Source of the DNA: a virus
Strand: one strand, 5' to 3'
DNA: 47,797 bases
Virus genome (UHGV): UHGV-0368429
Shown: piece by piece, positions 20,894-43,784 of the stretch
Position numbering within the stretch: the first letter of the stretch is position 1
How the letters are laid out: every line of letters begins with the position of its first letter
Made by a program: the position numbers and the translations under genes
Notes under the pieces: model-generated
Seen by the model: the letters and a program-made list of their open reading frames with translations, nothing else
What the model was told of the DNA's origin: nothing
Database searches by the model: none

Positions 20894-22213
20894 ATGCTTT
20901 ATAACACTGGAACCATTGCTGTCAACGGAAATACCGCCACAGGGACGGGTACTAACTGGACGGCACCTGCCAGCCAGGTCCGCGCTGGCCAGACGATTAT
21001 CGTCATGTCGAGCCCGGTTCAAATTTTCCAGATCTCAAGCGTGGACAGTTCCACCTCGATGACGGTTACACCTGCCGCCGCTCCGGCACTTAGCGGTCAG
21101 AAGTATGGAATCCTGGTGTCCGACAATATCTCTGTCGACGGACTGGCACAGGCCATGTCGCAGCTCATCAAAGAGTATGACGAGAATATTGGCGCGTGGG
21201 AGACGTTCGCCACAACCTTAGCCAATCAGAGCATTACCGTAACCATTAACGGCACCCCTGTAACGATCCCCGGCATCGGCAAACTGGCGCAAAAAGGGAG
21301 TAACGGTGCGCTGGCTGTTGCTGACGGCGGCACTGGGGCCACGAAGGCAGAGGACGCTCGCACAAACATCGGTTTGGGAGACAGCGCCACCAAGAGTGTT
21401 GGGACGGTAACTGGTACCGTAGCTGCCGGCGATGATTCTCGCATCACTGGTGCCCTTCAAAAAACTGGCGGGAAACTTACAGGACAACTGGATTTGGTAA
21501 GTGCACCGCTTGTGGCAGACGGTAACTCGGTTATTGTTGCAAATGGTGGTCTTGATGTTGATTTAGCAAAAGGACTAGCGTTAAGAGGAAGAGTGCAGCA
21601 GGGGGCGGGCAAAAACAATAATATACTTGTGGTATCTGGAGATGGTGATACAGGCGCGACGGGATATGTAGGTGCATTCCAGTATAACTGGTATACCGAT
21701 GGCTGGATTACAGGGATTACCCGTGGTTCAGGAACTAACACGCTGACGTATTCGATTTACTATAACGGTGCATCTTATGGTACAGGGGATAAACGATGGA
21801 GCTTCAATTATGATGGTTCCGCCACTTCTCAGGGGGCCTGGGTTAATGGTTCTGACGAGCGTCACAAGTCCAATATAAAGCCGGTGTCGACCCCACTAGC
21901 CGCCGTACTATCCATGCGTGGTGTCACGTATGACGTTCAGGATGGTGGTCGGGGTGTAGGACTTATTGCCCAGGATGTTGAAAATTGGTGTCCGGATGCC
22001 GTTAAGACATATGGAGATCGTGAATTCAGTGATGGCACTGTGATTGAGAATTTCAAATTTCTCGACACATCAGGCGTGTCTGCCGCATACCACACCGAAG
22101 CAATCAAAGAACTTTTTACCCTGGTGGAACTGGTACTTATCGATCCGGAAAAAGCACGTGATGTAATCAACGTGGTTAAAGAAGCCACTAAGCCTAGCCA
22201 GTCAGGTTTGTAA
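20894..22213 (+). CDS. Tail fibre / tailspike with C-terminal intramolecular chaperone (peptidase S74-like) domain
   Basis: 439 aa, Gly/Thr-rich repeats; C-terminal ...WVNGSDERHKSNIKPVS...LSMRGVTYD... fits the S-D-x-R-x-K auto-cleavage motif of S74 chaperone domains. Confidence 0.6.
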   Translation: MLYNTGTIAVNGNTATGTGTNWTAPASQVRAGQTIIVMSSPVQIFQISSVDSSTSMTVTPAAAPALSGQKYGILVSDNISVDGLAQAMSQLIKEYDENIGAWETFATTLANQSITVTINGTPVTIPGIGKLAQKGSNGALAVADGGTGATKAEDARTNIGLGDSATKSVGTVTGTVAAGDDSRITGALQKTGGKLTGQLDLVSAPLVADGNSVIVANGGLDVDLAKGLALRGRVQQGAGKNNNILVVSGDGDTGATGYVGAFQYNWYTDGWITGITRGSGTNTLTYSIYYNGASYGTGDKRWSFNYDGSATSQGAWVNGSDERHKSNIKPVSTPLAAVLSMRGVTYDVQDGGRGVGLIAQDVENWCPDAVKTYGDREFSDGTVIENFKFLDTSGVSAAYHTEAIKELFTLVELVLIDPEKARDVINVVKEATKPSQSGL

Positions 22214-22417
22214 ACAATACTCAGGCATCTAACAAGTAAAACGCCGCCCATCGCATGCAAGAATTTGCGGCGGCTAAAATCTGCTCATTAAGAGTTACTG
22301 CCATAAAATTTACAAAACTCATAATTCGAAACGACATAGAAACTTAGAAACGAAACGGCGAAGCTTTAAGCATTCATCACAGACCCTCTGTCTTGCGTGC
22401 ATACTCAAATGAAACTA

Positions 22418-22433
22418 CTGTATATAAAAACAG
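22418..22433. promoter_or_regulatory. LexA (SOS) box upstream of umuD
   Basis: CTGTATATAAAAACAG = CTGT-N8-ACAG with AT-rich spacer, 18 bp before the umuD ATG; identical in form to the E. coli umuDC operator. Confidence 0.85.
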
Positions 22434-22450
22434 TGTTTGAGGTATGCAAC

Positions 22451-22870
22451 ATGGAATTTATCAGGCCTGCAGAACTGCGAGAAATTATAGCTCTCCCGCT
22501 TTTCAGTGACTTAGTGCAGTGTGGTTTCCCAAGCCCAGCGGCTGATTACGTTGAACAGCGCATCGATCTCAATGAGTTACTTGTTGCTCACCCGAGCTCA
22601 ACGTATTTCGTCAAAGCCGCGGGCGATTCTATGATCGAAGCCGGGATCAGCGACGGTGATCTGCTGGTAGTGGACAGCTCCAGGACTGCTGAGCATGGTG
22701 ACATTGTCATCGCTGCGGTGGAAGGGGAGTTCACTGTTAAACGCCTGCAGCTGCGCCCGAACGTGCAACTAAACCCTATGAACAGCGCCTACAGTCCGAT
22801 AGTTATTGGCTGCGAAGATACGCTGGACGTTTTCGGCGTCGTGACTTTCATCGTTAAATCGGCGAGCTGA
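22451..22870 (+). CDS. umuD: UmuD-like error-prone polymerase accessory subunit (S24 peptidase)
   Basis: [45 protein letters not shown]...KAAGDSM... closely matches E. coli UmuD as recalled. Confidence 0.9.
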
Positions 22871-22872
22871 AC

Positions 22873-24141
22873 ATGTTCGCGCTCTGTGATGTGAATTCGT
22901 TCTACGCATCATGCGAGACGGTGTTTCGGCCTGATTTGAGGGGGCGCCCGGTTGTCGTTCTCTCGAATAATGATGGCTGCGTAATTGCGCGCAGCGCCGA
23001 GGCCAAAGCCGCCGGAATTACCATGGGTGAGCCTTTCTTCAAGCAAAAGGAGCTTTTCCGGCGCGCTGGCGTTGTTTGCTTCAGCAGCAATTACGAGCTG
23101 TACGCTGATATGTCGAACCGGGTAATGACGACGCTGGAAGAAATGAGCCCTCGCGTCGAAATATATAGCATCGATGAAGCTTTTTGCGACCTTACTGGTG
23201 TTCGAAACTGCCGGGACCTGACAGAGTTTGGCAAAGAGATCCGCGCGACGGTTCTGAAGCGTACGCACCTGACTGTCGGGATTGGCATCGCGAAAAGTAA
23301 GACCCTTGCAAAGCTGGCAAATCACGCCGCCAAAAAATGGCAGCGTCAGACGGGCGGAGTTGTTGATTTGTCCAATATCGATCGCCAGCGTCGGTTGTTG
23401 GCTATTGTGCCTGTGGAGGACGTATGGGGCGTCGGCAGGCGCATCAGTAAGAAGCTGAACGCCATGGGCATCAAAACGGCTCTGGACCTCTCAGAACAAA
23501 GCACATGGATTATCCGTAAACACTTTAACGTGGTACTCGAGCGAACGGTCCGGGAGTTGCGCGGCGAGCCTTGTCTTGATCTGGAGGAGTTTGCACCAGC
23601 TAAGCAGGAAATCGTCTGCAGTCGGTCATTCGGTGAACGCGTTACCGAATACGAACAGATGCGGCAGGCTATTTGCAGCTATGCGGCGCGTGGTGCTGAA
23701 AAGCTTCGCGGCGAACATCAGTATTGCCGTTTTATCTCTGCGTTCGTGAAGACGTCACCTTTTGCCCTGAACGAGCCGTATTACGGCAACAGCGCGTCAG
23801 TGAAGCTTCTCACCCCCACTCAGGATTCCCGCGACATCATCAACGCCGCGGTAAAGTGCCTGGACAAAATCTGGAAGGATGGGCACCGCTATCAAAAGGC
23901 TGGAATTATGCTGGGAGATTTTTTCAGTCAAGGGGTGGCACAGCTGAACCTTTTCGATGAGCACGCGCCGCGCGCTGGAAGCGATAAGTTGATGGATGTG
24001 CTCGATCACTTGAACGCGAAAGAAGGGAAAGGAACACTCTTCTTTGCCGGGCAGGGCATTCAACAGCAGTGGCAGATGAAGCGGCAGTTGCTTTCACCCC
24101 GATATACTACTCGCATATCAGATTTATTAATTGTGAAGTAA
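22873..24141 (+). CDS. umuC: UmuC-like Y-family translesion DNA polymerase (Pol V catalytic subunit)
   Basis: 422 aa; [41 protein letters not shown]... is the Y-family N-terminus; immediately follows umuD. Confidence 0.9.
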
Positions 24142-24166
24142 AAAGGCTGCTTAACGCAGCCTTTTT
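24141..24166. terminator. Bidirectional rho-independent terminator (umuC and convergent small ORF)
   Basis: AAAA-GGCTGC-TTAAC-GCAGCC-TTTTT; A-run on one side, T-run on the other. Confidence 0.7.
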
Positions 24167-24172
24167 AGTTAA

Positions 24173-24322
24173 TTAAGCAGCTTTTTTCTCGCTGCATTTG
24201 CAATGAGGGATAACAAAAACTTTCGCCTTTTTAGGGCGGATGATTTTACCATCCTTCATTACATAGGGCGTGAAGGTTACTTCACACGAATTCCCACATT
24301 TTGGACAATAGCCAGTTTTCAT
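24173..24322 (-). CDS. Unlisted small ORF (49 aa): zinc-ribbon-like protein, putatively SOS-regulated
   Basis: Translated by hand (below the 60-aa listing cutoff): MKTGYCPKCGNSCEVTFTPYVMKDGKIIRPKKAKVFVIPHCKCSEKKAA*; CPKC...HCKC; GGAG about 7 nt before ATG; LexA box 28 bp upstream; terminator downstream. Confidence 0.5.
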   Translation of the reverse strand: MKTGYCPKCGNSCEVTFTPYVMKDGKIIRPKKAKVFVIPHCKCSEKKAA

Positions 24323-24349
24323 GTGAGATCTCCTATGTAAATGTACAGC

Positions 24350-24365
24350 CTGTAAATCTAAACAG
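24350..24365. promoter_or_regulatory. LexA (SOS) box upstream of the small zinc-ribbon ORF
   Basis: CTGTAAATCTAAACAG = CTGT-N8-ACAG with AT-rich spacer. Confidence 0.65.
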
Positions 24366-24476
24366 ATTGCACCTTGTTAGGAGAACCACTATACTTTTAG
24401 CCGTCAAGCATTTTGTGTAGCGGTAGATTTCTCCATACACACCGAGTTATGCGTCAACATAGCTCGCCCCCTAAGA

Positions 24477-24500
24477 AGCCCTGCGTCAACAGGGCTTTTT
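24477..24500. terminator. Hairpin terminator just past the ImmA-like gene
   Basis: GCCCTG-CGTCAA-CAGGGC followed by TTTTTT on the plus strand, preceded by A-rich sequence. Confidence 0.5.
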
Positions 24501-24983
24501 TCAATAAAATTCAAAGCAAAGCTGTGCTGTTTGATAGCCCAATTTATCGAGCATCGTTTCTGCGAAAAGATCCGCCTGCCATTCAGAATCTTCATTTTGT
24601 TCCGGCATGGCATTCGCAAAGTGTAAGGCTGGCTTATGTTGTAGTAGCAAGTGCCCGAGCTCATGGAATATAACAAATAACGCTGATCGTTCACCGCCAC
24701 ATGCCATTTCATAGATATGGTTTGGAACCCTGATAGTCAGTTTGTCAGGTTCACAGTGTCCAATCGTTAGACCCAGCGTTTCCTGAAACCATTCGTCATC
24801 ATCCATTGGATCGAGGACAATATTCCATTGAGATAATGTTTCCAGCGCTACGTCAAATCTGCGCGGTCTACGCCGGTATTTATACTTACTAGTAAATCCG
24901 AGTGCAAAGCAAGCATTTACAGCTATCGCTTTAATTTCCATTTCACTCAGAGGACGAACACGTGTACCGCGCATTAAATGCAT
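24501..24983 (-). CDS. ImmA/IrrE-family zinc metallopeptidase (COG2856-like)
   Basis: 160 aa with HEXXH motif (FHELGHLLLQH); immediately downstream of an XRE HTH gene in the same orientation; AT-rich. Confidence 0.7.
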   Translation of the reverse strand: MHLMRGTRVRPLSEMEIKAIAVNACFALGFTSKYKYRRRPRRFDVALETLSQWNIVLDPMDDDEWFQETLGLTIGHCEPDKLTIRVPNHIYEMACGGERSALFVIFHELGHLLLQHKPALHFANAMPEQNEDSEWQADLFAETMLDKLGYQTAQLCFEFY

Positions 24984-25000
24984 AACAGTTTCCTAAGCAG

Positions 25001-25360
25001 TTATTTTTTGTTGATTTCTGCAAGTAATTCTGCAAATTTTTTTAATTCTTCATGGGTGAATTCCGATTTTGCAAAACCAGCAACAAGCATTTGTTGTTGC
25101 TTTGGTAAACCTTCAATAGGTACCAATTCATTCGCGATAGAAGCTAAAACATCGAGATCATCAATGTAATAACCTTGCGCTGCAAAAAGTTCATTGATTG
25201 CCGTTACCCATTTCTCTGGTATTTTTTTAGTCCCTGTTTCGAGCCCGCTTAGAAAAGCAGGTGTTGTTCCTAAAGCCTTTGCCATTGTAAGCAAAGTATA
25301 ACCAGTATCGATCCGAGCTTTCCTTACGGCCTTTCCGAAATCAGTAAGAGCCATAGTCAT
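25001..25360 (-). CDS. XRE-family helix-turn-helix transcriptional regulator
   Basis: 119 aa; N-terminal HTH (…FGKAVRKARIDTGYTLLTMAKALGTTPAFLSGLETG…); paired with the ImmA-like gene. Confidence 0.7.
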   Translation of the reverse strand: MTMALTDFGKAVRKARIDTGYTLLTMAKALGTTPAFLSGLETGTKKIPEKWVTAINELFAAQGYYIDDLDVLASIANELVPIEGLPKQQQMLVAGFAKSEFTHEELKKFAELLAEINKK

Positions 25361-25459
25361 ATCCTCAGTGCTTTCATTGTGGCTTACGCCAGATGTTCTA
25401 AATATACTCTAACCATAAAAAAAGTAAACTCATCAAGAAAAATAAATTAACCAAAAAGG

Positions 25460-26131
25460 TTAAGTTATTATTTCTATTAGATTTTTACCTTGATTTCTGG
25501 CGTTTCCAACCGCGCGTGTAACAGCGTGCCAGATAAACTTGTCGGCAGGCACTGCGCCGTCGGCTGCTATCTCTTCAGCTTCTTTCCCGCCTATATCCTG
25601 ACGTATCCACTCGCGAGCCGCTTCCGGTGACAGAACCAGTGGCCGGCGATCGTGAATATCGACCAGACCTTTATCAGCTGCAGATGTCACGATGAGAAAA
25701 CCTTCAGCTTCGTCTCCACGCTCAAATGGTGTGCTGCCGATAGCCGCCATAAATATTGGCTGGCCGTCGGCCCGGTGAATGAAGTAGGGCTGTTTCTTGT
25801 CTGCTTCCTTCTTCCATTCGAACCAGCCATCCGCAAAGCAGATCGCCCGGCCATGTTGCCAGAGAGGCTTGAACATTCGGCTGGTGGCCGCCGTCTCGAC
25901 GCGTGCGTTAATCAGTGGCGGTTTATCCCACCACTCGGGCGCGTAAGACCACAGGACTGGATCAAGATGCAGCTGCTCGTTGCGTTCGCTCAGGAGCAGC
26001 ACCTTGGTACCGGGCGAGACGTTGTACCGGCCTATAGGTTCCGGGTCATACGCAATGTCACGATCGGCTTCATCGGCCAAGTATGCCAGATATTCTTCAC
26101 GGGTTTGGGCTTGTGCAAAACGTCCACACAC
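25460..26131 (-). CDS. yedK: SOS-response-associated peptidase (SRAP; YedK/HMCES family abasic-site processing protein)
   Basis: 223 aa starting MCGRFAQAQTREEYLAYLADEADRDIAYDPEPIGRYNVSPGTKVLLLSERNEQLHLDPVLWSYAPEWWDKPPLINARVETAATSRMFKP..., matching E. coli YedK with the catalytic Cys2. Confidence 0.85.
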   Translation of the reverse strand: MCGRFAQAQTREEYLAYLADEADRDIAYDPEPIGRYNVSPGTKVLLLSERNEQLHLDPVLWSYAPEWWDKPPLINARVETAATSRMFKPLWQHGRAICFADGWFEWKKEADKKQPYFIHRADGQPIFMAAIGSTPFERGDEAEGFLIVTSAADKGLVDIHDRRPLVLSPEAAREWIRQDIGGKEAEEIAADGAVPADKFIWHAVTRAVGNARNQGKNLIEIIT

Positions 26132-26311
26132 AGGAACCTCCAGTCAGTAAGACTGAAAGTATAGGGCAGGGAGAAAAAGTAGTGTGCGCTGGTTAAGTCC
26201 TACAAACGGATTCGCGCTGATTATGCTAATGAGGATGAAATGCGTAAAGCGATGCGTTGTGAAACTGGAAGGAGCTACGCAAAGTTGCGACAATGCCAAA
26301 AGAGAAAGCTA

Positions 26312-26335
26312 AACCCGGTAGGGGATCCGGGTTCG
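26312..26335 (-). terminator. Hairpin terminator downstream of dinI
   Basis: Inverted repeat AACCCGG-TAGGGGAT-CCGGGTT; T-containing tract follows on the minus strand. Confidence 0.4.
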
Positions 26336-26356
26336 CTGTGATGACAATATGGAAAT

Positions 26357-26596
26357 TCATTCATTAGTAAGCCACATATCAGACTCTTCAAACATATCCT
26401 CCAGCATACGGTTCAACTTTTCACGGTCACTTTTGCTGGCATCACTATTCAATCCGTTAGCCTGCATAGGTTTCACCTTCACTTCAGCATCAGGGAATAT
26501 GCTATGCACTCGCCTCGTCAGCTCAGCCAAAATAATTTCTCTGGCGCCATCCAAGCCCTGGACATTTCGCTTATCGTAAACCAACTCAACAAACAT
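26357..26596 (-). CDS. dinI: DinI-family DNA-damage-inducible protein
   Basis: 79 aa; ...GAREIILAELTRRVHSIFPDAEVKV...EESDMWLTNE follows the E. coli DinI pattern; LexA box 42 bp upstream. Confidence 0.8.
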   Translation of the reverse strand: MFVELVYDKRNVQGLDGAREIILAELTRRVHSIFPDAEVKVKPMQANGLNSDASKSDREKLNRMLEDMFEESDMWLTNE

Positions 26597-26637
26597 AACA
26601 GTCTCCTTAATCTCTGTGAGAGGAAGCTATATTTTTA

Positions 26638-26653
26638 CTGTAAATATATACAG
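26638..26653. promoter_or_regulatory. LexA (SOS) box upstream of dinI
   Basis: CTGTAAATATATACAG = CTGT-N8-ACAG. Confidence 0.8.
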
Positions 26654-26767
26654 TGTCAAGCGAGTGATACGATCTACACGATGGGATTTTTCGTCCGGTT
26701 GAACAGAAATTACCGGTAGTTATTCCCCAGTTATTCCCCAATATTTCCCCGTAAGAAAACTACCAAT

Positions 26768-26797
26768 AAAAAAACCAGCCATAAGAGGCTGGTTTTC
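26768..26797 (-). terminator. Rho-independent terminator adjacent to attP (would follow the reconstituted tRNA in a lysogen; tI/sib-like position)
   Basis: AACCAGCC-ATAAGA-GGCTGGTT flanked by an A-run (plus) and T-run (minus); 10 bp from the CCA end of the tRNA fragment. Confidence 0.6.
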
Positions 26798-26807
26798 AAT
26801 GTATTTT

Positions 26808-26853
26808 TGGTCGGCACGAGAGGATTTGAACCTCCGACCCCCGACACCCCATG
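26808..26853 (-). other. attP core: 3'-terminal 46 nt of a tRNA-Pro-like gene (partial tRNA, not intact)
   Basis: Reverse complement CATGGGGTGTCGGGGGTCGGAGGTTCAAATCCTCTCGTGCCGACCA has T-arm, acceptor 3' strand and CCA and matches the 3' part of E. coli proL as recalled; the 5' half is absent; int is adjacent. Confidence 0.65.
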
Positions 26854-26904
26854 TCACTGCGTTAAAGCCGCTGCAACCCTTGTAAATACTGGTGCTACGG
26901 CATG

Positions 26905-26940
26905 TTTGACTGTATATGCAAACAGTGCATTTTTTGCAAA
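26905..26940 (-). promoter_or_regulatory. LexA-box-containing promoter-like element between int and attP, oriented toward attP
   Basis: CTGTATATGCAAACAG (26910..26925); on the minus strand TTGCAA-17-TATACA flanks and overlaps it. Confidence 0.4.
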
Positions 26941-26989
26941 ATCCGCACTATATACATCAATGAGTTACGGGTAGGTTTTTCCCCATACA

Positions 26990-28183
26990 TCACCCGGCTT
27001 TAAAGACAATTTCAGCATGAGGAACTTCTACCCATTCCACATGGTTCTGGGTATAAACTTTTGTCGATTTTGCATCACTATGGGCCATCCTTGCCTGCGG
27101 ATCGATACCTTGTCTTTCGAAAATATGAGCCGCCAGCGCTCTAATCTCGTGGAAAGTTGGCCTTTCTTTGATAGGTAATTCTGCCGCTACACCTATCCGG
27201 TCCCGCAGCTCTGAAAATGCCCTGCTCAAATAATCAGGGGCCACCTGTGTTGGGTGGTTAACTTCCTTGCTTATCGGATTGCTTCTCTTTTCCAGAAGCC
27301 GGTGAATAACATAAGGACTGGCCACATTGTCTCTGCTGTTGTCGATGATCTCTTTCAGGGCCCTGCCGATCGGAATAGCGACGTGTGAAGCCTCTTTGTG
27401 CTGCACTTTTTGCCGATGAATGTAAAGCGTTCCGAATATGCCAGCCTCCTCCTGATCGAACCATACACAGCCGCAAACCCCTTCTTGAGGTTCCTTGATC
27501 GAGTACCGGATCCGGGAAACTTCCAGGCGCGCTTGCGTAGTTTGTATGGCAAGGTCCATTGCAGTCTTCAGCCAAGGTTCAGCAGCTGCATGTATGGCCA
27601 GGAACTGTTCCAAAGTAAGTCGCCGGCGGACCTTTTTATCGACACGCCGCATTTTTTTCCGTGTTGCAGGGTTATCCATCATTAGCGATTCATCAACAGC
27701 ATAAGAGAATAGCTTTTTCAGGAAGCTAACTTTTCGGTTCTGAACATTGGCCGACGATTCAGAATGGTAATTTCGTATGTAGGCATTTACGTGCTCAAGC
27801 TCAATATCGCATGCGGGTATGTTATTAAAAAATTCTTTAACCCTGATGGCATCATTATTCCAATCGTCAAGTGTGCTTTTAGACGGCTGCTCATCTTTGA
27901 TTGCTCTCTCCATAATGCGATCAACATGTTCAGAAAACGGGTGGGCTTCACCATTCAGCCCTCCCGATTCCCGAATTAATGAATCTATCGATGGTGTATT
28001 TTCAGGGCGCATCCTCAGGTTATATTCTCGGGCGATGGCGATAGCCATTACTCGATCCGAACCGAGAGTTTTCTTTTTCCCAGTTATAAGCGTGAACTTA
28101 TACACGCCACGATCTTTATCAAAAAAAAGATAATCAGGAAGGTGGCGGTATTCTTTTTTTCGTGGCCTTGCTGCCATGGTCAA
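26990..28183 (-). CDS. int: Tyrosine integrase
   Basis: 397 aa next to attP on the same strand; lambda-type position; C-terminal region typical of tyrosine recombinases. Confidence 0.85.
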   Translation of the reverse strand: MTMAARPRKKEYRHLPDYLFFDKDRGVYKFTLITGKKKTLGSDRVMAIAIAREYNLRMRPENTPSIDSLIRESGGLNGEAHPFSEHVDRIMERAIKDEQPSKSTLDDWNNDAIRVKEFFNNIPACDIELEHVNAYIRNYHSESSANVQNRKVSFLKKLFSYAVDESLMMDNPATRKKMRRVDKKVRRRLTLEQFLAIHAAAEPWLKTAMDLAIQTTQARLEVSRIRYSIKEPQEGVCGCVWFDQEEAGIFGTLYIHRQKVQHKEASHVAIPIGRALKEIIDNSRDNVASPYVIHRLLEKRSNPISKEVNHPTQVAPDYLSRAFSELRDRIGVAAELPIKERPTFHEIRALAAHIFERQGIDPQARMAHSDAKSTKVYTQNHVEWVEVPHAEIVFKAG

Positions 28184-36033: not shown

Positions 36034-36886
36034 ATTAACGGGTTACGTTTGGGACGCTTGTGCCGCTTCTGGCATGAAGCTGTCCAGCGTTGCCATCATG
36101 GCGCGTCTGGCAGACTTCAGCAGTGATGAAGGGGTTAGCTGGCCTTCCATCGCTACCATCGCGCGCCAGATTGGTGCCGGTGAGAGCACGGTTCGAACAG
36201 CCATATCTCAACTGGAAAAAGACGGGTGGTTAACCCGCCAGCAGCGCCGTAAAGGCAACCGCAATGCATCGAACGTTTACCAGCTCAATGTTGCGAAATT
36301 ACAGGCTGCTGCCTTTTCTCACCTGTCAGATTCTGACGCATCAAAATCTGATGCCTCAAAAACCGACGCGTCAAAATCTGAGGCATCAAAAAACGATGAA
36401 AAAGACGGTTTTCACCCGTCAGAATCTGGGGGGGATCCGTCAGTAAATACAACTACTGATCCATCAGATAAAAAACATTCTTGTCCGGTTGCTGCGCAAC
36501 CCGACCCTGTGGTGGTTATCACCGATCAGGCGAAGCAGGTTTTATCACATCTGAACAAGACCACCGGATCACGGTATCAGGTCTGCAAATCGTCCTTGGA
36601 AAACATCCGGGCTCGCCTGGCTGACGGGTTTACGCCCGATGAGCTGCTGTTGGTGGTGGATTACAGCGTCGAGAAGTGGGGCGAAGATCTGAAAATGGCC
36701 GAATATCTGCGCCCAACAACGTTGTTTTTGCCATCTAAATTCCCAGGTTACCTGCAATCCGCAAATAAGTGGAACGCAGCAGGACGCCCAGAACGACAGT
36801 ACTGGGGCTCAATTCGTAAGCATGATCCGATGAAATTTGGTGGGCCAGATAAAGCCATCCCAGCTGGCTTCAGGGGAGCGAAATGA
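36023..36886 (+). CDS. Replication initiator (lambda O-like replisome organiser)
   Basis: 287 aa; N-terminal winged-helix-like region; central repetitive linker encoded by the iterons; occupies the lambda O position. Confidence 0.65.
   Translation: MSTKLTGYVWDACAASGMKLSSVAIMARLADFSSDEGVSWPSIATIARQIGAGESTVRTAISQLEKDGWLTRQQRRKGNRNASNVYQLNVAKLQAAAFSHLSDSDASKSDASKTDASKSEASKNDEKDGFHPSESGGDPSVNTTTDPSDKKHSCPVAAQPDPVVVITDQAKQVLSHLNKTTGSRYQVCKSSLENIRARLADGFTPDELLLVVDYSVEKWGEDLKMAEYLRPTTLFLPSKFPGYLQSANKWNAAGRPERQYWGSIRKHDPMKFGGPDKAIPAGFRGAK
36335..36400 (+). repeat. Four 15-bp direct repeats (candidate ori iterons) inside the O-like gene
   Basis: TCAAAA[TA]C[TC]GA-type units starting at 36341, 36356, 36371 and 36386 with exact 15-bp period; flanked by palindrome GTCAGATTCTGAC; encode (DASKS)n. 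Confidence 0.5.
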
Positions 36887-37782
36887 TGAGCATGAATGCT
36901 GATAACAAATATTGCCGCGCGCTGGCTGAACTGCGCTCAAAGCCAGCGCATGAATTGAAAGAAGTTGGCGATCAGTGGCGCACTCCGGATTTGTTGTTTT
37001 GGGGCATCAATTCGATATTTGGGCCGATGGTTCTGGATCTGTTTGCAGACGATAGCAATACTAAATGCCCTGCATGGTACACCGCCGAAGATAACGCGCT
37101 GACGCAGGACTGGTCAGAGCGTCTGGCAGAACTCGGTGGCGCCGCGTTTGCAAATCCGCCATATAGCCGTTCTCAGTACCATGAAAAGCAGGCCATCACT
37201 GGCATGACCCACATCATGAATCACACAATGGCGATGCGTGATAAAGGTGGTCGTTACATATACCTCGTGAAGTCAGCCACAAGTGAAACATGGTGGCCGG
37301 AAGATGCCGATCACATCATGTTTATTCGTGGTCGTATTGGGTTCGATCTTCCTATTTGGTTTGTTCCCGCTGACGAGAAGCAGCAACCCACCAGCGCATT
37401 TTTTGCCGGGGCAATCGCTGTCTTCGACAAAACCTGGCGTGGTGAAAGCTTCAGCTATATCAATCGCACCGAACTGGAAGAAAAAGGGCGTGCAGCATTG
37501 TCATTGGCTCAATTCGCCGCGGCAAAAATGGCCCTTTCGTCGGTGCCGGAAAAAGCAATGCCTACTCCCATTGCAACGGCTGATGCAGAGTCGCGCATCT
37601 GGCCGCTGGAGGTTGGTCTGGTATTCAATCAGGTCAAGGGGGCGGATTCTCTGGGCGTGAACCAACAGAACAAGTTGAAGGCCAACATCAACCAACTCTG
37701 GCTGGAGCGTGTGCCTACCAGCGAAATAATTAGCGTGGCCGGTGGTCTGGTTAGCAGCATGCAGGGGGCCGTCAATGCGTGA
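36883..37782 (+). CDS. DNA N6-adenine methyltransferase (phage Dam-like)
   Basis: 299 aa with NPPY motif (…AAFANPPYSRSQ…); start overlaps the O-like stop (ATGA). Confidence 0.75.
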   Translation: MMSMNADNKYCRALAELRSKPAHELKEVGDQWRTPDLLFWGINSIFGPMVLDLFADDSNTKCPAWYTAEDNALTQDWSERLAELGGAAFANPPYSRSQYHEKQAITGMTHIMNHTMAMRDKGGRYIYLVKSATSETWWPEDADHIMFIRGRIGFDLPIWFVPADEKQQPTSAFFAGAIAVFDKTWRGESFSYINRTELEEKGRAALSLAQFAAAKMALSSVPEKAMPTPIATADAESRIWPLEVGLVFNQVKGADSLGVNQQNKLKANINQLWLERVPTSEIISVAGGLVSSMQGAVNA

Positions 37783-39712
37783 AATCATCGTTGATAACTT
37801 TGCCGGTGGTGGCGGCGCGAGTACCGGCATTGAACTGGCCATCGGGCGTAGCGTGGATATCGCTATCAACCACGACGAAAACGCTATTGCGATGCATAAG
37901 ACGAATCACCCGGACACGCTGCATTATTGCGAGTCGGTGTTTGACGTTGACCCAAGCGCAGCCACCAGCGGTAAACCTGTCGGTCTGGCCTGGTTTAGCC
38001 CTGACTGTCGCCACTTTTCCAAAGCGAAGGGCGCTAAGCCGGTTAAGAAAGAGATTCGCGGGCTGGCGTGGATTGTCCTGCGCTGGGCGCTGGCAGTACG
38101 TCCCCGCGTCATGATGCTGGAGAACGTCGAAGAATTTAAGACATGGGGACCGCTGCTGGATGAAGAATTACGCCCGGATCCTGAGCGTGCAGGTGAAACA
38201 TTCGAGGCATTTGTCGGCATGTTGTCGACTGGTATCGCGGCGAATCACCCAGCACTGGCTGAGGTTTGTGAATTTCTTGCCATTGAGCCGCACGGCCAGC
38301 AGGCGCAACAGCTGATCGCCGGGCTTGGCTATGAGGTCGATTATCGTGAGCTGCGCGCTTGTGACTACGGCGCGCCGACGATCAGAAAGCGTTTCTTCAT
38401 GGTCATGCGCTGTGACGGCCGCAAGATTCATTGGCCTGAAGCGACTCATGGGGATCCAAAATCACTGGAAGTACAAAGCGGCAAGCTGGCGCCATGGCGT
38501 ACCGCGGCGGAGTGCATTGACTGGAATATCCCGGCCCGGTCCATCTTCGACCGCAAAAAGCCGCTGGCGGAAAATACGCTCAAACGTATCGCACGCGGCA
38601 TCCAGCGCTTTGTTATCGAAAGCGCATCACCTTTCATCGTGAAGTGTAACCACACCACGACGAAAGGAGGTTATGACTGTTTCCGCGGGCAATCGTTGTT
38701 AGAGCCATTGCAGACCATCACTAAAAAGCATGGCTACGCGCTGGCCGTACCGCATCTTACTAAATTCCGCACCGGGGCCACCGGGCAGCCAGTGACCGAG
38801 CCAGTTCCAACTGTCACCGCTGGTACGTCGGCGCGCCCGGGCGGGAATGGGCATGCGCTTGGCGTAGTTGAGGCCGCCCTGACACCGTTCCTGGCTGGCA
38901 ATGGCGGCAGTGAGTACCAGGCAAAGCCGCGCCCACTGGATAAACCCGCTCATACAATCCTCAAGCAGTCCCGCGCGTGCGTGGTTGCGCCGGTCATCGC
39001 CCGCCAGTTTGGCGCCAGTGTTGGGCATAGGGCTGACGAACCTAGCGCAACGATTACTGCAGGTGGTGGCGGTAAGTCGCAGCTGGTAACTCCAACACTG
39101 ATCCAGATGGGGTACGGCGAACGCCCAGGGCAAGAACCGCGTGTTCTTCAACTGAATAACCCGCTCGGCACGGTCACTGCTGGTGGTAATAAGTTTGCAA
39201 CGGTGAGCGCGTTCCTGGCGAAGCACTATGGTGGGAATTACACGGGGCCGGGTGTTGGTATGGATGAGCCTGCCCACTCAGTCACTACTGTTGATCATCA
39301 CGCGGTAGTTGCGTCGCACCTGGTGAAGCTGCGCGGAACCTGCCGCGACGGTCAGACCATGGATACACCTATGCCGACGATTACCGCTGGTGGCCAGCAT
39401 GTTGGTGAGGTCCGGACATTCCTCGAAACCTACTGCGGTGATAGCGAGGATGAATGGCTGGTGACGATCGAGGGGGTTAAGTACCAGATCGTCGATATCG
39501 GAATGCGCATGCTGCAACCGCATGAGCTTTATAAGGCACAGGGCTTCCCTGACGGCTACGTTATCGATCAGGACTATCGCGGCAATCGTTACGCCAAAGA
39601 CAAGCAGGTAGCGCGCTGCGGTAACGCAGTACCGCCGCCGTTCGCTCGTGCGCTGGTAGAAGCAAATCTTCCTGAATTATGTGCAAATCAAAAGGCGGGT
39701 GCAGCCGCCTGA
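37775..39712 (+). CDS. DNA cytosine-5 methyltransferase with extended repeat-containing variable region (candidate multispecific)
   Basis: From ATG 37775: FAGGGG (motif I), SPDC (motif IV), ENV (motif VI), RKRFFMV (motif VIII), C-terminal GNAVPPPFARAL (motif X); between VIII and X five repeats of the T-[IV]-T-A-G-G type. Confidence 0.8.
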   Translation: MREIIVDNFAGGGGASTGIELAIGRSVDIAINHDENAIAMHKTNHPDTLHYCESVFDVDPSAATSGKPVGLAWFSPDCRHFSKAKGAKPVKKEIRGLAWIVLRWALAVRPRVMMLENVEEFKTWGPLLDEELRPDPERAGETFEAFVGMLSTGIAANHPALAEVCEFLAIEPHGQQAQQLIAGLGYEVDYRELRACDYGAPTIRKRFFMVMRCDGRKIHWPEATHGDPKSLEVQSGKLAPWRTAAECIDWNIPARSIFDRKKPLAENTLKRIARGIQRFVIESASPFIVKCNHTTTKGGYDCFRGQSLLEPLQTITKKHGYALAVPHLTKFRTGATGQPVTEPVPTVTAGTSARPGGNGHALGVVEAALTPFLAGNGGSEYQAKPRPLDKPAHTILKQSRACVVAPVIARQFGASVGHRADEPSATITAGGGGKSQLVTPTLIQMGYGERPGQEPRVLQLNNPLGTVTAGGNKFATVSAFLAKHYGGNYTGPGVGMDEPAHSVTTVDHHAVVASHLVKLRGTCRDGQTMDTPMPTITAGGQHVGEVRTFLETYCGDSEDEWLVTIEGVKYQIVDIGMRMLQPHELYKAQGFPDGYVIDQDYRGNRYAKDKQVARCGNAVPPPFARALVEANLPELCANQKAGAAA

Positions 39713-42389: not shown

Positions 42390-42581
42390 ATGCAAAATCA
42401 ACCTTATATGACAGAAGAAGCAAAGGCGGTTTTTAACGAACTCAGCGCTTCACCAGCGACAGCTGGGGAAATTGCACAGAATACGCACCTAAGCCGAGAG
42501 AAATGCCAGCTCATCCTGACGCAGCTGGTTATGGCGGGGTTATCAGATTACCAGTTTGGATGTTACAAACGCCTCCACTGA
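42390..42581 (+). CDS. Hypothetical small late protein
   Basis: 63-aa ORF with purine-rich SD-like sequence upstream. Confidence 0.45.
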   Translation: MQNQPYMTEEAKAVFNELSASPATAGEIAQNTHLSREKCQLILTQLVMAGLSDYQFGCYKRLH

Positions 42582-42731
42582 AGGGGGCATTCTGCTGTGG
42601 AAATGGGCGGCTGGTGGGTGTTGTAGCACCCAACCAGCCATTAGCTCATGCTTTCAGGTCACAAGCTAACCAAGGCCCACTGCTTTAGCGCAAAAGCATA
42701 GTGAGCCTATCAGAGTTACGCTTACGGATCT

Positions 42732-43784
42732 ATGAAAAATACTGTAAATATAAACAGTGTTGAGCTTGTCAACGCTGACTGCCTGCAATACCTCGCAACC
42801 CTCCCAGATAACACCATCGACCTTATTGTTACGGATCCGCCTTATTTTAAGGTGAAGCCGAACGGCTGGGATAATCAGTGGAATGGTGACGCCGACTATC
42901 TTCGCTGGCTTGATATGTGTCTTGCCCAGTTCTGGCGAGTGCTTAAGCCTGCCGGCAGCCTGTATTTGTTTTCAGGTCACCGACTTGCATCCCATATTGA
43001 GATCATGATGCGTGAACGCTTCAACGTCATGAACCACATTATCTGGGCGAAGCCATCAGGGCGCTGGAACGGGTGTAATAAAGAAAGCCTGCGCTCTTAC
43101 TTTCCCGCGACGGAACGCATCCTTTTCGCTGAGCATTATCAGGGGCCATATAAGCCGAAAAGCGACGGATTTGCTGAGAAAAGCAACGAGGTCAAACAGC
43201 ACGTCATGGCTCCGTTAATCACCTACTTTCGGGAAGCACGAGCCGAACTGGGGGTCACGTCCAGGCAAATAGCTGACGCCACCGGAAAGAAAAATATGGC
43301 GTCTCACTGGTTCGGTGCCAGTCAGTGGCAACTACCGAACGAGCAGGATTACGAAAAGCTGCAGGAATTGTTCACTCAGATCGCCATTGAGAAGCACCGC
43401 GCCTCTGAACTCAAAGCACCGCATCACCAGCTGGTGGCCACATGGCATTCGTTGAACCGGAAATACCTTGATCTGCTGGAAGAGTACAAATCTCTTCGGC
43501 GGCATTTCTCTGTGACAGTAGCCGTGCCCTATACAGACGTCTGGACACATAAACCCGTCCAGTTCTATCCAGGCAAACACCCGTGCGAAAAGCCCGCTGA
43601 TATGTTGCGGCAAATCATCAACGCCAGCAGCAGGCCCGGCGATGTGGTAGCTGATTTCTTTATGGGCTCGGGATCAACTGTTAAAGCAGCCATTGAACTG
43701 GGCCGCCAGGCTATCGGCGTAGAACTGGAAGAGGAACGTTTCAACCAGACGGTAAGTGAGGTAAGGCAGCTGGCAGGGGAATAA
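42732..43784 (+). CDS. DNA methyltransferase, DPPY class (N6-adenine or N4-cytosine)
   Basis: 350 aa; motif order ...IDLIVTDPPYF... (catalytic) before ...FFMGSGST... (SAM-binding) is beta-class. Confidence 0.8.
   Translation: MKNTVNINSVELVNADCLQYLATLPDNTIDLIVTDPPYFKVKPNGWDNQWNGDADYLRWLDMCLAQFWRVLKPAGSLYLFSGHRLASHIEIMMRERFNVMNHIIWAKPSGRWNGCNKESLRSYFPATERILFAEHYQGPYKPKSDGFAEKSNEVKQHVMAPLITYFREARAELGVTSRQIADATGKKNMASHWFGASQWQLPNEQDYEKLQELFTQIAIEKHRASELKAPHHQLVATWHSLNRKYLDLLEEYKSLRRHFSVTVAVPYTDVWTHKPVQFYPGKHPCEKPADMLRQIINASSRPGDVVADFFMGSGSTVKAAIELGRQAIGVELEEERFNQTVSEVRQLAGE

Follow-up and report, generated by a model that had tools for sequence, protein, structure and literature searches.

The genome UHGV-0368429, a virus genome of the UHGV collection of which one strand of 47,797 nucleotides (nt; hereafter the window) was analysed, carries genes for DNA-damage functions at 22.4-26.9 kb, between its tail fibre and its attachment site attP, and raises the question of whether these genes answer to LexA, the SOS repressor of the host. 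The original prediction described the stretch as a damage-tolerance module under LexA control, with LexA boxes serving umuDC, a 49-amino-acid (aa) zinc-ribbon open reading frame (ORF), dinI and an att-proximal promoter, and with an SRAP gene and an XRE/ImmA pair in between. The position and the gene calls hold (by Pfam, with the helix-turn-helix (HTH) hits of XRE below the cut-offs), and umuDC and dinI indeed have near-consensus boxes that overlap their promoters, while the role of the second box had to be refined and the case for the att-proximal one has weakened. We consider it probable, from the sequence features set out below, that a phi80-like lambdoid phage acquired the stretch horizontally, as a cargo island whose DNA-damage functions are tied to the SOS signal of the host. 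SOS-linked cargo modules of this general kind are known; the composition of this one is new.

LexA-box-like sites are concentrated in the island

The window contains five matches to the pattern CTGT-N8-ACAG, at 22418-22433, 24350-24365, 26638-26653, 26910-26925 and 42742-42757, here called boxes 1 to 5 (Table 1). The first four are those listed before, and they are real; the list was incomplete, a strongly conserved fifth site having been missed. Dinucleotide-preserving shuffles gave an expectation of 0.57 matches, and none of 100 shuffles held five or more. We also scanned the window with a symmetrised LexA weight matrix built on 23 E. coli operators from the literature, which themselves score between 12.7 and 27.5 bits. 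Four sites reached at least 16 bits against 0.04 expected, and the best position outside the boxes scored 10.8 bits; boxes 1, 3, 4 and 5 fall within the training range, and box 2 falls just under its weakest member. Four of the five sites lie inside 9.4% of the window (binomial P ~3.5e-4), which bears out the enrichment expected of the island, although the fifth site, at 42742, means that this enrichment is not exclusive to it. AT content is higher in the island than elsewhere in the window, and such DNA holds AT-rich palindromes more often, which would favour taking the four sites for chance matches in intergenic DNA; the shuffles, the excess of high-scoring sites and the retention of the sites in diverged relatives effectively refute that reading.

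The sites differ in how they meet promoters. Box 3 lies in a promoter spacer, box 1 lies on a predicted -10 element, box 2 stands 1 nt from the -35 element of a candidate small RNA (sRNA) gene, box 4 has weak candidate promoters only and box 5 lies inside a coding start. The claim that all four island sites precede transcription units is sound for boxes 1 and 3, needs refining for box 2, by far the weakest of the sites in score, and fails for box 4, which precedes no gene here.

umuDC and dinI have the architecture of SOS genes

Judged by sequence, boxes 1 and 3 are ordinary SOS operators in a standard SOS architecture. The umuDC promoter is read as a -35 element TTGCGT (22393-22398), a 17-nt spacer and a -10 element TACTGT (22416-22421), so placed that box 1 overlaps the predicted -10 element and ends 15 nt before the umuD ATG. 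The same or a near-identical box stands 5' of umuD in Klebsiella phage ST846-OXA48phi9.2, a prophage of E. coli 210205630, phage PHB10 and L013 (comparison loci L001, L002, L004 and L013). The UmuD translation contains the Cys-Gly cleavage site in VQCGFP, the serine in GDSM and the lysine in TVKRL. The DinI domain takes up most of a protein of ~80 aa and scores 77 bits against a cut-off of 24.2 (PF06183), and box 3 stands 41 nt before the dinI ATG; in one relative, phage Flotzy, a box lies at a comparable place, 58 nt upstream of dinI.

The 3' end of dinI (26295-26357, minus strand), a hairpin with UAGCUUUCUCUUUU, contains a short complement to the Shine-Dalgarno region of E. coli ftsZ that recalls Klebsiella DinR. 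A DinR-like pairing with E. coli ftsZ was rejected, the duplex being no better than shuffles (z = 0.66).

Box 2 is fixed to the promoter of a conserved candidate small RNA

Box 2 had been assigned to the zinc-ribbon ORF (ZnR). It sits between this ORF and a divergent candidate sRNA gene, which the original prediction lacked, and its position is fixed relative to the -35 element of the RNA. Near-identical relatives were uninformative for footprinting (the Klebsiella phage for box 2, Flotzy for box 4), and therefore we gathered more diverged loci, from the contexts of ZnR homologues and then by an intergenic-pattern scan of viral, genome and metagenome collections, which together yielded 16 intergenic variants. 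In the pattern-derived loci the presence of GGAGAACC, TANANT and CTCCATACACA follows from the search itself; all three were, however, already there in the five loci reached earlier by way of the homologues of the ZnR protein. All 16 variants carry a TTGNNN-17-TANANT promoter on the strand opposite the ZnR ORF.

Across 13 distinct RNA sequences, 94.8% of the alignment cells in the proposed stems pair, as against 37-66% in slid-partner controls, and seven pairs have changed on both sides, which was matched by 1 of 500 shuffles. The last of the three stem-loops is an intrinsic terminator (24473-24500) that serves ImmA on the opposite strand too. Rfam gave no family at gathering thresholds in the whole window and chance-level matches only around the sRNA, including its istR model (13.2 bits, E=4).

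The pattern CTGT-N8-ACAG occurs in 11 of the 16 variants with an 8-nt spacer in seven forms, and in every box-bearing variant the box ends exactly 1 nt before the sRNA -35 element. Between the box and the ZnR ATG lie 22 to 27 nt, depending on the variant, and this flank cannot be aligned. Box-bearing genome records come from Kluyvera, Enterobacter wuhouensis, Atlantibacter and Kosakonia; the Rheinheimera-type variant is without the box. Box 2 reads as a moderate-affinity candidate LexA operator placed relative to the sRNA promoter, and it probably overlaps the promoter of the ZnR ORF as well. A degenerate LexA-like half-palindrome, CTATGTAAATGTACAG (plus strand, 24331-24350, 9.9 bits), abuts box 2 in window-type variants only.

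ZnR and the sRNA form an apparently undescribed pair

ZnR is a hydrophilic, basic protein with a five-Cys pattern, predicted to be all-beta from its alignment and from an AlphaFold2 model (mean predicted local distance difference test score, pLDDT, 77.8). Its family is tiny, comprising seven homologous protein clusters. The sole Pfam hit (treble-clef) is sub-threshold, PHROG, PADLOC and PDB gave no match by sequence, and the model found no Foldseek match with E < 2. The ORF is divergent from the sRNA gene, and the pair usually follows XRE-ImmA (12 loci); it lies near umuDC or SRAP in L013, L033, L034, L036 and L037. None of 5,426 complete E. coli genomes has the module, and a single deposited phage carries it; it is present in Enterobacteriaceae prophages and metagenomes. 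One P2-like prophage contig (L016) has two tandem ZnR ORF copies (100-228 and 447-575) by portal and terminase genes.

A type I toxin-antitoxin reading of the sRNA and ZnR is not supported. Duplex energies between the sRNA and the ZnR mRNA are like those of shuffles (z from -1.3 to +2.4), the longest pairings span 9-12 nt where the null mean is 9-10, and a lysine-rich, five-Cys, predicted all-beta protein does not resemble a small hydrophobic membrane toxin.

We describe the two as an apparently undescribed RNA/micro-protein module and as a compact candidate for a new SOS-regulated function. A LexA-gated sRNA and ZnR, usually placed directly after XRE-ImmA and often beside umuDC or SRAP, might amount to a new kind of SOS effector module, a suggestion in which we place little confidence; an action of the pair on host translation, replication or cell division during damage is a possibility. 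If such a module existed, site-specific recombination and the late operon would also come under LexA, through boxes 4 and 5 respectively; in the Shiga toxin (Stx) 2e phage phiP27 that operon lies upstream of toxin genes.

Box 5 is conserved within the start of a late-region methylase gene

Box 5, a near-consensus site, coincides with codons 4-9 of a gene for an N6/N4 DNA methylase (42732-43784) that sits between Q and the lysis genes. The pattern CTGT-N8-(A/C)CAG is kept in six diverged phages (SfV, Stx2a_WGPS2, phiP27, mEp460, Hafnia yong2 and Kp4866-6), and the contact bases are kept in 7 of 7 aligned sequences, the window included. These phages span Shigella, E. coli, Klebsiella and Hafnia, and two of them, Stx2a_WGPS2 and phiP27, are Stx-converting. 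Those synonymous positions on which the box depends do not vary (Thr is always ACT, codon 8 ends in C, and Ser is AGY), and neighbouring synonymous sites vary. We found no clear promoter at box 5 and, in the literature searched, no report of a LexA site 5' of stx or in a phage methylase gene. The methylase gene of phiP27 lies between Q and stx2e, and the box there raises direct contact of LexA with late or toxin transcription as a question.

Upstream, between a small phrog_331 ORF (42390-42581; its phiP27 homologue is annotated as TrmB-family) and the methylase gene, lies a non-coding block of ~130 nt (42600-42730) that is highly conserved across lambdoid phages and has long hairpins, without a match in Rfam. 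A structured RNA upstream of the methylase was considered and rejected: the hairpins are conserved, but the covariation term is unfavourable.

Box 4 lies within an arm of attP

The region between dinI and the integrase gene reads as a lambda-type attP at a tRNA gene, with a core, arm repeats, an IHF-like site and an adjacent tyrosine integrase. ARAGORN found no complete tRNA at attP, which holds the 3' fragment of tRNA-Pro only; the E. coli junctions of this tRNA-Pro att adjoin yejO. The direct repeats of the dinI-side arm are conserved in Flotzy and Phi06_2987, and across six att junctions ACATCAAT is invariant and the rest of the IHF/arm stretch nearly so.

Box 4 lies in the int-proximal arm, where 55 nt separate it from the attP core and 65 nt from the stop codon of int. 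Its candidate promoters are TTGACT-16-CATTTT on the plus strand and TTGCAA-17-TATACA on the minus strand. The block from box 4 to the arm repeat (26903-26985) is ~80% conserved in 115 E. coli genomes. The six junctions fall into five sequence types, all of which share the right half CAAACAGT; three types have CTGT as the left half, and the other two, LD91 and EC23 (11.4 and 12.5 bits), have ATGT, so that scores range over the types from 18.8 to 11.4 bits. In the islands of APEC O78 and O25b the box falls in the 16-nt spacer of promoters (TTTACT-TATAAT and TTCACT-CATAAT) that face cargo genes; their counterpart in the window is the plus-strand TTGACT-16-CATTTT.

The att-proximal promoter of the original prediction has become doubtful: it would face only the 3' end of int, and the box is embedded in an attP arm with a left half that is ATGT in two types. 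Since box 4 lies inside a conserved arm and has these ATGT forms, its conservation may reflect recombination proteins, not LexA. Most simply, box 4 would be a site for a recombination protein, or else a promoter-operator belonging to a slot that holds no cargo in this phage, and its control by LexA is possible. In E. coli the slot between the att block and int (loci L019 and L022-L026) carries variable plus-strand cargo, including XRE-ImmA, an AbiL-like ATPase pair (a defence system) and hypothetical proteins.

The XRE-ImmA pair may form a separate damage switch

The XRE-ImmA gene pair is conserved in 12 loci, and an inverted repeat of the type TTAACC-N5-GGTTAA lies upstream of XRE homologues in seven. 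The palindrome TAACC-N5-GGTTA has a single exact copy in the window, upstream of XRE, which suggests simple autoregulation; it was not found near the sRNA and ZnR promoters. ImmA has no PDB match by sequence, and the PADLOC similarity of the pair to capH/capP is weak (E ~1e-4). By sequence features the pair fits the known class of XRE + M78 damage switches, members of which respond to DNA damage (bioRxiv 10.1101/2022.04.27.489752).

A proposed SOS circuit and its alternatives

From the sequence motifs, promoter overlap, gene identities, conservation and RNA covariation we infer a scheme, its LexA occupancy, SOS induction, transcript ends and all protein and RNA functions included, in which host LexA dimers in an undamaged lysogen would sit on the umuDC -10 element, in the spacer of the dinI promoter and between the sRNA promoter and the ZnR ORF. 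Upon DNA damage, activated RecA would trigger self-cleavage of LexA and release umuDC, dinI, the sRNA and probably ZnR. UmuD and UmuC would then support translesion synthesis of the Pol V type after self-cleavage of UmuD, and DinI would modulate RecA filaments. SRAP, XRE and ImmA appear to be transcribed from promoters of their own that lack LexA boxes; the role of SRAP would be to protect abasic sites in single-stranded DNA, XRE would autoregulate at its palindrome, and XRE with ImmA might, by analogy with ImmR/ImmA and CapH/CapP, form a second, LexA-independent damage switch. The phage CI (34169-34795) has HTH and S24 repressor domains with GDSM...KKL motifs read from its translation, and as a cleavable repressor it implies that the LexA boxes would control cargo, not lysogeny, and that prophage induction would need no LexA-controlled antirepressor. 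Mild damage may thus switch the cargo on before the prophage induces. Lysogens that gain, under SOS control, a further error-prone polymerase, a modulator of RecA and a shield for abasic sites could survive and mutate differently under DNA-damaging antibiotics.

Several points weigh against this scheme. The matrix depends on literature operators of E. coli, and, with the ZnR/sRNA module absent from the complete E. coli genomes, the enterobacterial type of LexA specificity is an assumption. Box 2, at 12.1 bits, is below the weakest training operator (12.7 bits) and is missing from 5 of the 16 variants, and for the ZnR ORF we found no sigma-70 promoter that convinced. In the L036/L049 variant the place of box 2 is taken by a symmetric CCGT...ACGG, which keeps the palindrome and should abolish LexA binding, and which hints at another palindrome-reading factor or an RNA hairpin. 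Such observations would suit a narrower view, rather unlikely to our minds, in which LexA would bind boxes 1 and 3 alone, or these and box 5, while box 2 serves as operator for some other dimeric regulator or has a structural part in the divergent promoter region, and box 4 is a site for recombination proteins (Xis, Fis or an Int accessory) that resembles a LexA box by chance. The sRNA and the ORF stay intact in L036/L049 and in the variants that have lost the box (L015, L028/L041 and L035), and box 4 belongs to a block of ~85 nt that is conserved whole, with ATGT types and without a gene that follows it. Yet in the Enterobacteriaceae-type variants what is kept of box 2 corresponds exactly to the eight bases that LexA contacts, and its spacer drifts; box 4 in the window scores inside the range of real operators; and in the APEC O78 and O25b islands it is built into promoters that face cargo genes.

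The cassette of XRE, ImmA, sRNA and ZnR could alternatively be a self-contained conflict module (toxin-antitoxin or anti-phage) that travels with SOS genes, with ZnR or the RNA as its effector and LexA as a secondary input, which we judge unlikely. The cassette does move as a unit and independently of umuDC, being found in P2/HP1-like phages by tail-fibre or portal genes and with P4-type integrases; L014 adjoins the defence genes DarT and BrxR; ImmA and XRE have weak PADLOC matches to capP/capH and RmrA; and the layout, with the LexA box flanked by a small ORF and a divergent sRNA gene, resembles that of tisB/istR-1. However, ZnR is unlike type I toxins in being hydrophilic and basic and is without a PADLOC model, the complementarity between the sRNA and the ZnR mRNA is not beyond chance, and the XRE operator does not recur at the sRNA and ZnR promoters. 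Control of the island by the SOS signal, with boxes 1 and 3 as its firmest elements, is the reading that we prefer.

Comparison with known systems

Like the umuDC-type operons of E. coli (umuDC), of plasmids (mucAB, impAB and samAB) and of Salmonella phage vB_SosS_Oslo and Escherichia phage PHB10, the operon here has a umuD-umuC pair (2 nt apart), the UmuD cleavage site with Ser/Lys motifs and a near-consensus LexA box just before umuD. The core of box 1, CTGTATATAAAAACAG, is also that of the E. coli umuDC box. The phage copies of umuDC are 81-87% identical to the window in DNA, and PHB10 and Oslo share the umuDC part only; unlike the other operons, the one here stands in a phi80-like b region together with SRAP, XRE-ImmA, sRNA/ZnR and dinI.

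The dinI homologues of Gifsy prophages are LexA-regulated (PMC3121763, PMC8072944), within a LexA-regulated dinI-antirepressor-irsA operon (Lemire et al. 2011, PMC3121763). That operon lies in the nin region, whereas dinI here lies in the b region, and a cleavable CI would need no antirepressor. A Gifsy-type antirepressor operon was searched for and rejected, tblastn having found no gftA or irsA homologue in the window; irsA is not SRAP.

With tisB/istR-1 and dinQ/agrB the island shares a LexA box between a small ORF and a divergent, terminator-ended sRNA. The likeness is one of layout only, as ZnR is a basic zinc ribbon, not a hydrophobic peptide, and no antisense complementarity was detected between the sRNA and the ZnR mRNA. 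With ImmR/ImmA of ICEBs1, CapH/CapP of cyclic-oligonucleotide-based anti-phage signalling systems (CBASS) and DdrO/IrrE, it shares adjacent genes for an HTH repressor and an HExxH metallopeptidase, a palindromic operator upstream of the repressor gene and an association with DNA-damage functions; unlike in those switches, no regulated divergent operon is evident here, and capH/capP are matched weakly.

Neighbourhood with umuCD and presence in prophages are both known for SRAP genes (Aravind et al. 2013, PMC3765255). As in that arrangement, an SRAP with an N-terminal Cys is found beside a UmuCD pair, here on a temperate phage. Unlike there, SRAP has its own promoter-like site without a LexA box, and the XRE-ImmA-sRNA-ZnR cassette separates it from umuDC.

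Setting and gene content of the island

The structural half of the genome is 90.6% identical to phage phi80. The island occupies the b-region position and has a G+C content of 0.43-0.46, against 0.52-0.61 in the structural genes; its relatives occur in Klebsiella and Enterobacter. The SRAP protein starts with MCGRF, with Cys at position 2, and scores 170 bits with PF02586.

Table 1 Features of the island, of its flanks and of box 5 (a point marks features given without a strand)
Feature	Position	Strand	Evidence and remarks
Tail fibre with S74 chaperone domain	20894-22213		Pfam
LexA box 1 (candidate) TACTGTATATAAAAACAGTG	22416-22435	.	Pattern match; matrix 25.4 bits
umuD	22451-22870	+	Pfam Peptidase_S24, E=1e-29
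umuC, Y-family DNA polymerase	22873-24141	+	Pfam IMS, IMS_C, DUF4113
Bidirectional terminator hairpin	24136-24170	.	Inverted repeat; common to convergent umuC and ZnR ORF
ZnR micro-ORF, 49 aa	24173-24322	-	CPKCG-x2-C ... HCKC; lysine-rich
LexA box 2 (candidate) GCCTGTAAATCTAAACAGAT	24348-24367	.	Pattern match; matrix 12.1 bits
sRNA promoter, sigma-70-type	24367-24395	+	TTGCAC 24367-24372, 17 nt, TATACT 24390-24395; spacer has GGAGAACC
Candidate ~100-nt small RNA, three stem-loops	24400-24501	+	Alignment, RNAalifold; ends inferred
ImmA/IrrE-type M78 metallopeptidase, HELGH	24501-24983	-	Pfam Peptidase_M78; PHROG 87; weak PADLOC capP/RmrA
XRE-family HTH repressor, ImmA partner	25001-25360	-	HTH_31, HTH_3 below Pfam cut-offs; PADLOC HTH_VI, weak capH
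Palindrome TAACC-N5-GGTTA, probable XRE operator	25448-25462	.	5' of XRE promoter; overlaps SRAP stop codon
SRAP (YedK/HMCES family), N-terminal Met-Cys	25460-26131	-	Pfam SRAP PF02586, E=7e-50; PHROG 1599
Terminator-like hairpin 3' of dinI	26311-26334	-	Weak T tail
dinI homologue	26357-26596	-	Pfam DinI PF06183, E=1e-21; PHROG 189
dinI promoter TTGACA-17-AAAAAT	26631-26659	-	LexA box 3 fills spacer
LexA box 3 (candidate)	26636-26655 (20-mer); 26638-26653 (core)		Matrix 26.2 bits
Three direct repeats TTATTCCCC, TTATTCCCC, ATATTTCCCC	26720-26750	.	Probable arm-type Int sites, dinI-side arm
Hairpin like the terminator after host tRNA-Pro	26770-26797	-	
attP core	26806-26853	-	41-48 nt 100% identical to 3' end of annotated E. 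coli tRNA-Pro
LexA box 4 (candidate, att-proximal) GACTGTATATGCAAACAGTG	26908-26927	.	Int-proximal attP arm, between tRNA-Pro core and IHF-like site; 18.8 bits
IHF-consensus-like CATCAATGAGTTA	26955-26967	.	Int-side arm; putative
Arm-type GTTTTTCCCC	26975-26984	.	Int-side arm; putative
Lambda-type tyrosine integrase	26990-28183	-	Pfam
LexA box 5 (candidate) TACTGTAAATATAAACAGTG	42740-42759	.	Within N6/N4 DNA methylase gene; 24.4 bits

Reading of the translations points to three DNA methyltransferase-like genes in the window: 36883-37782, 37742-39712 (656 aa, cytosine-C5-like) and the N6/N4 methylase gene that contains box 5, the last confirmed by Pfam.

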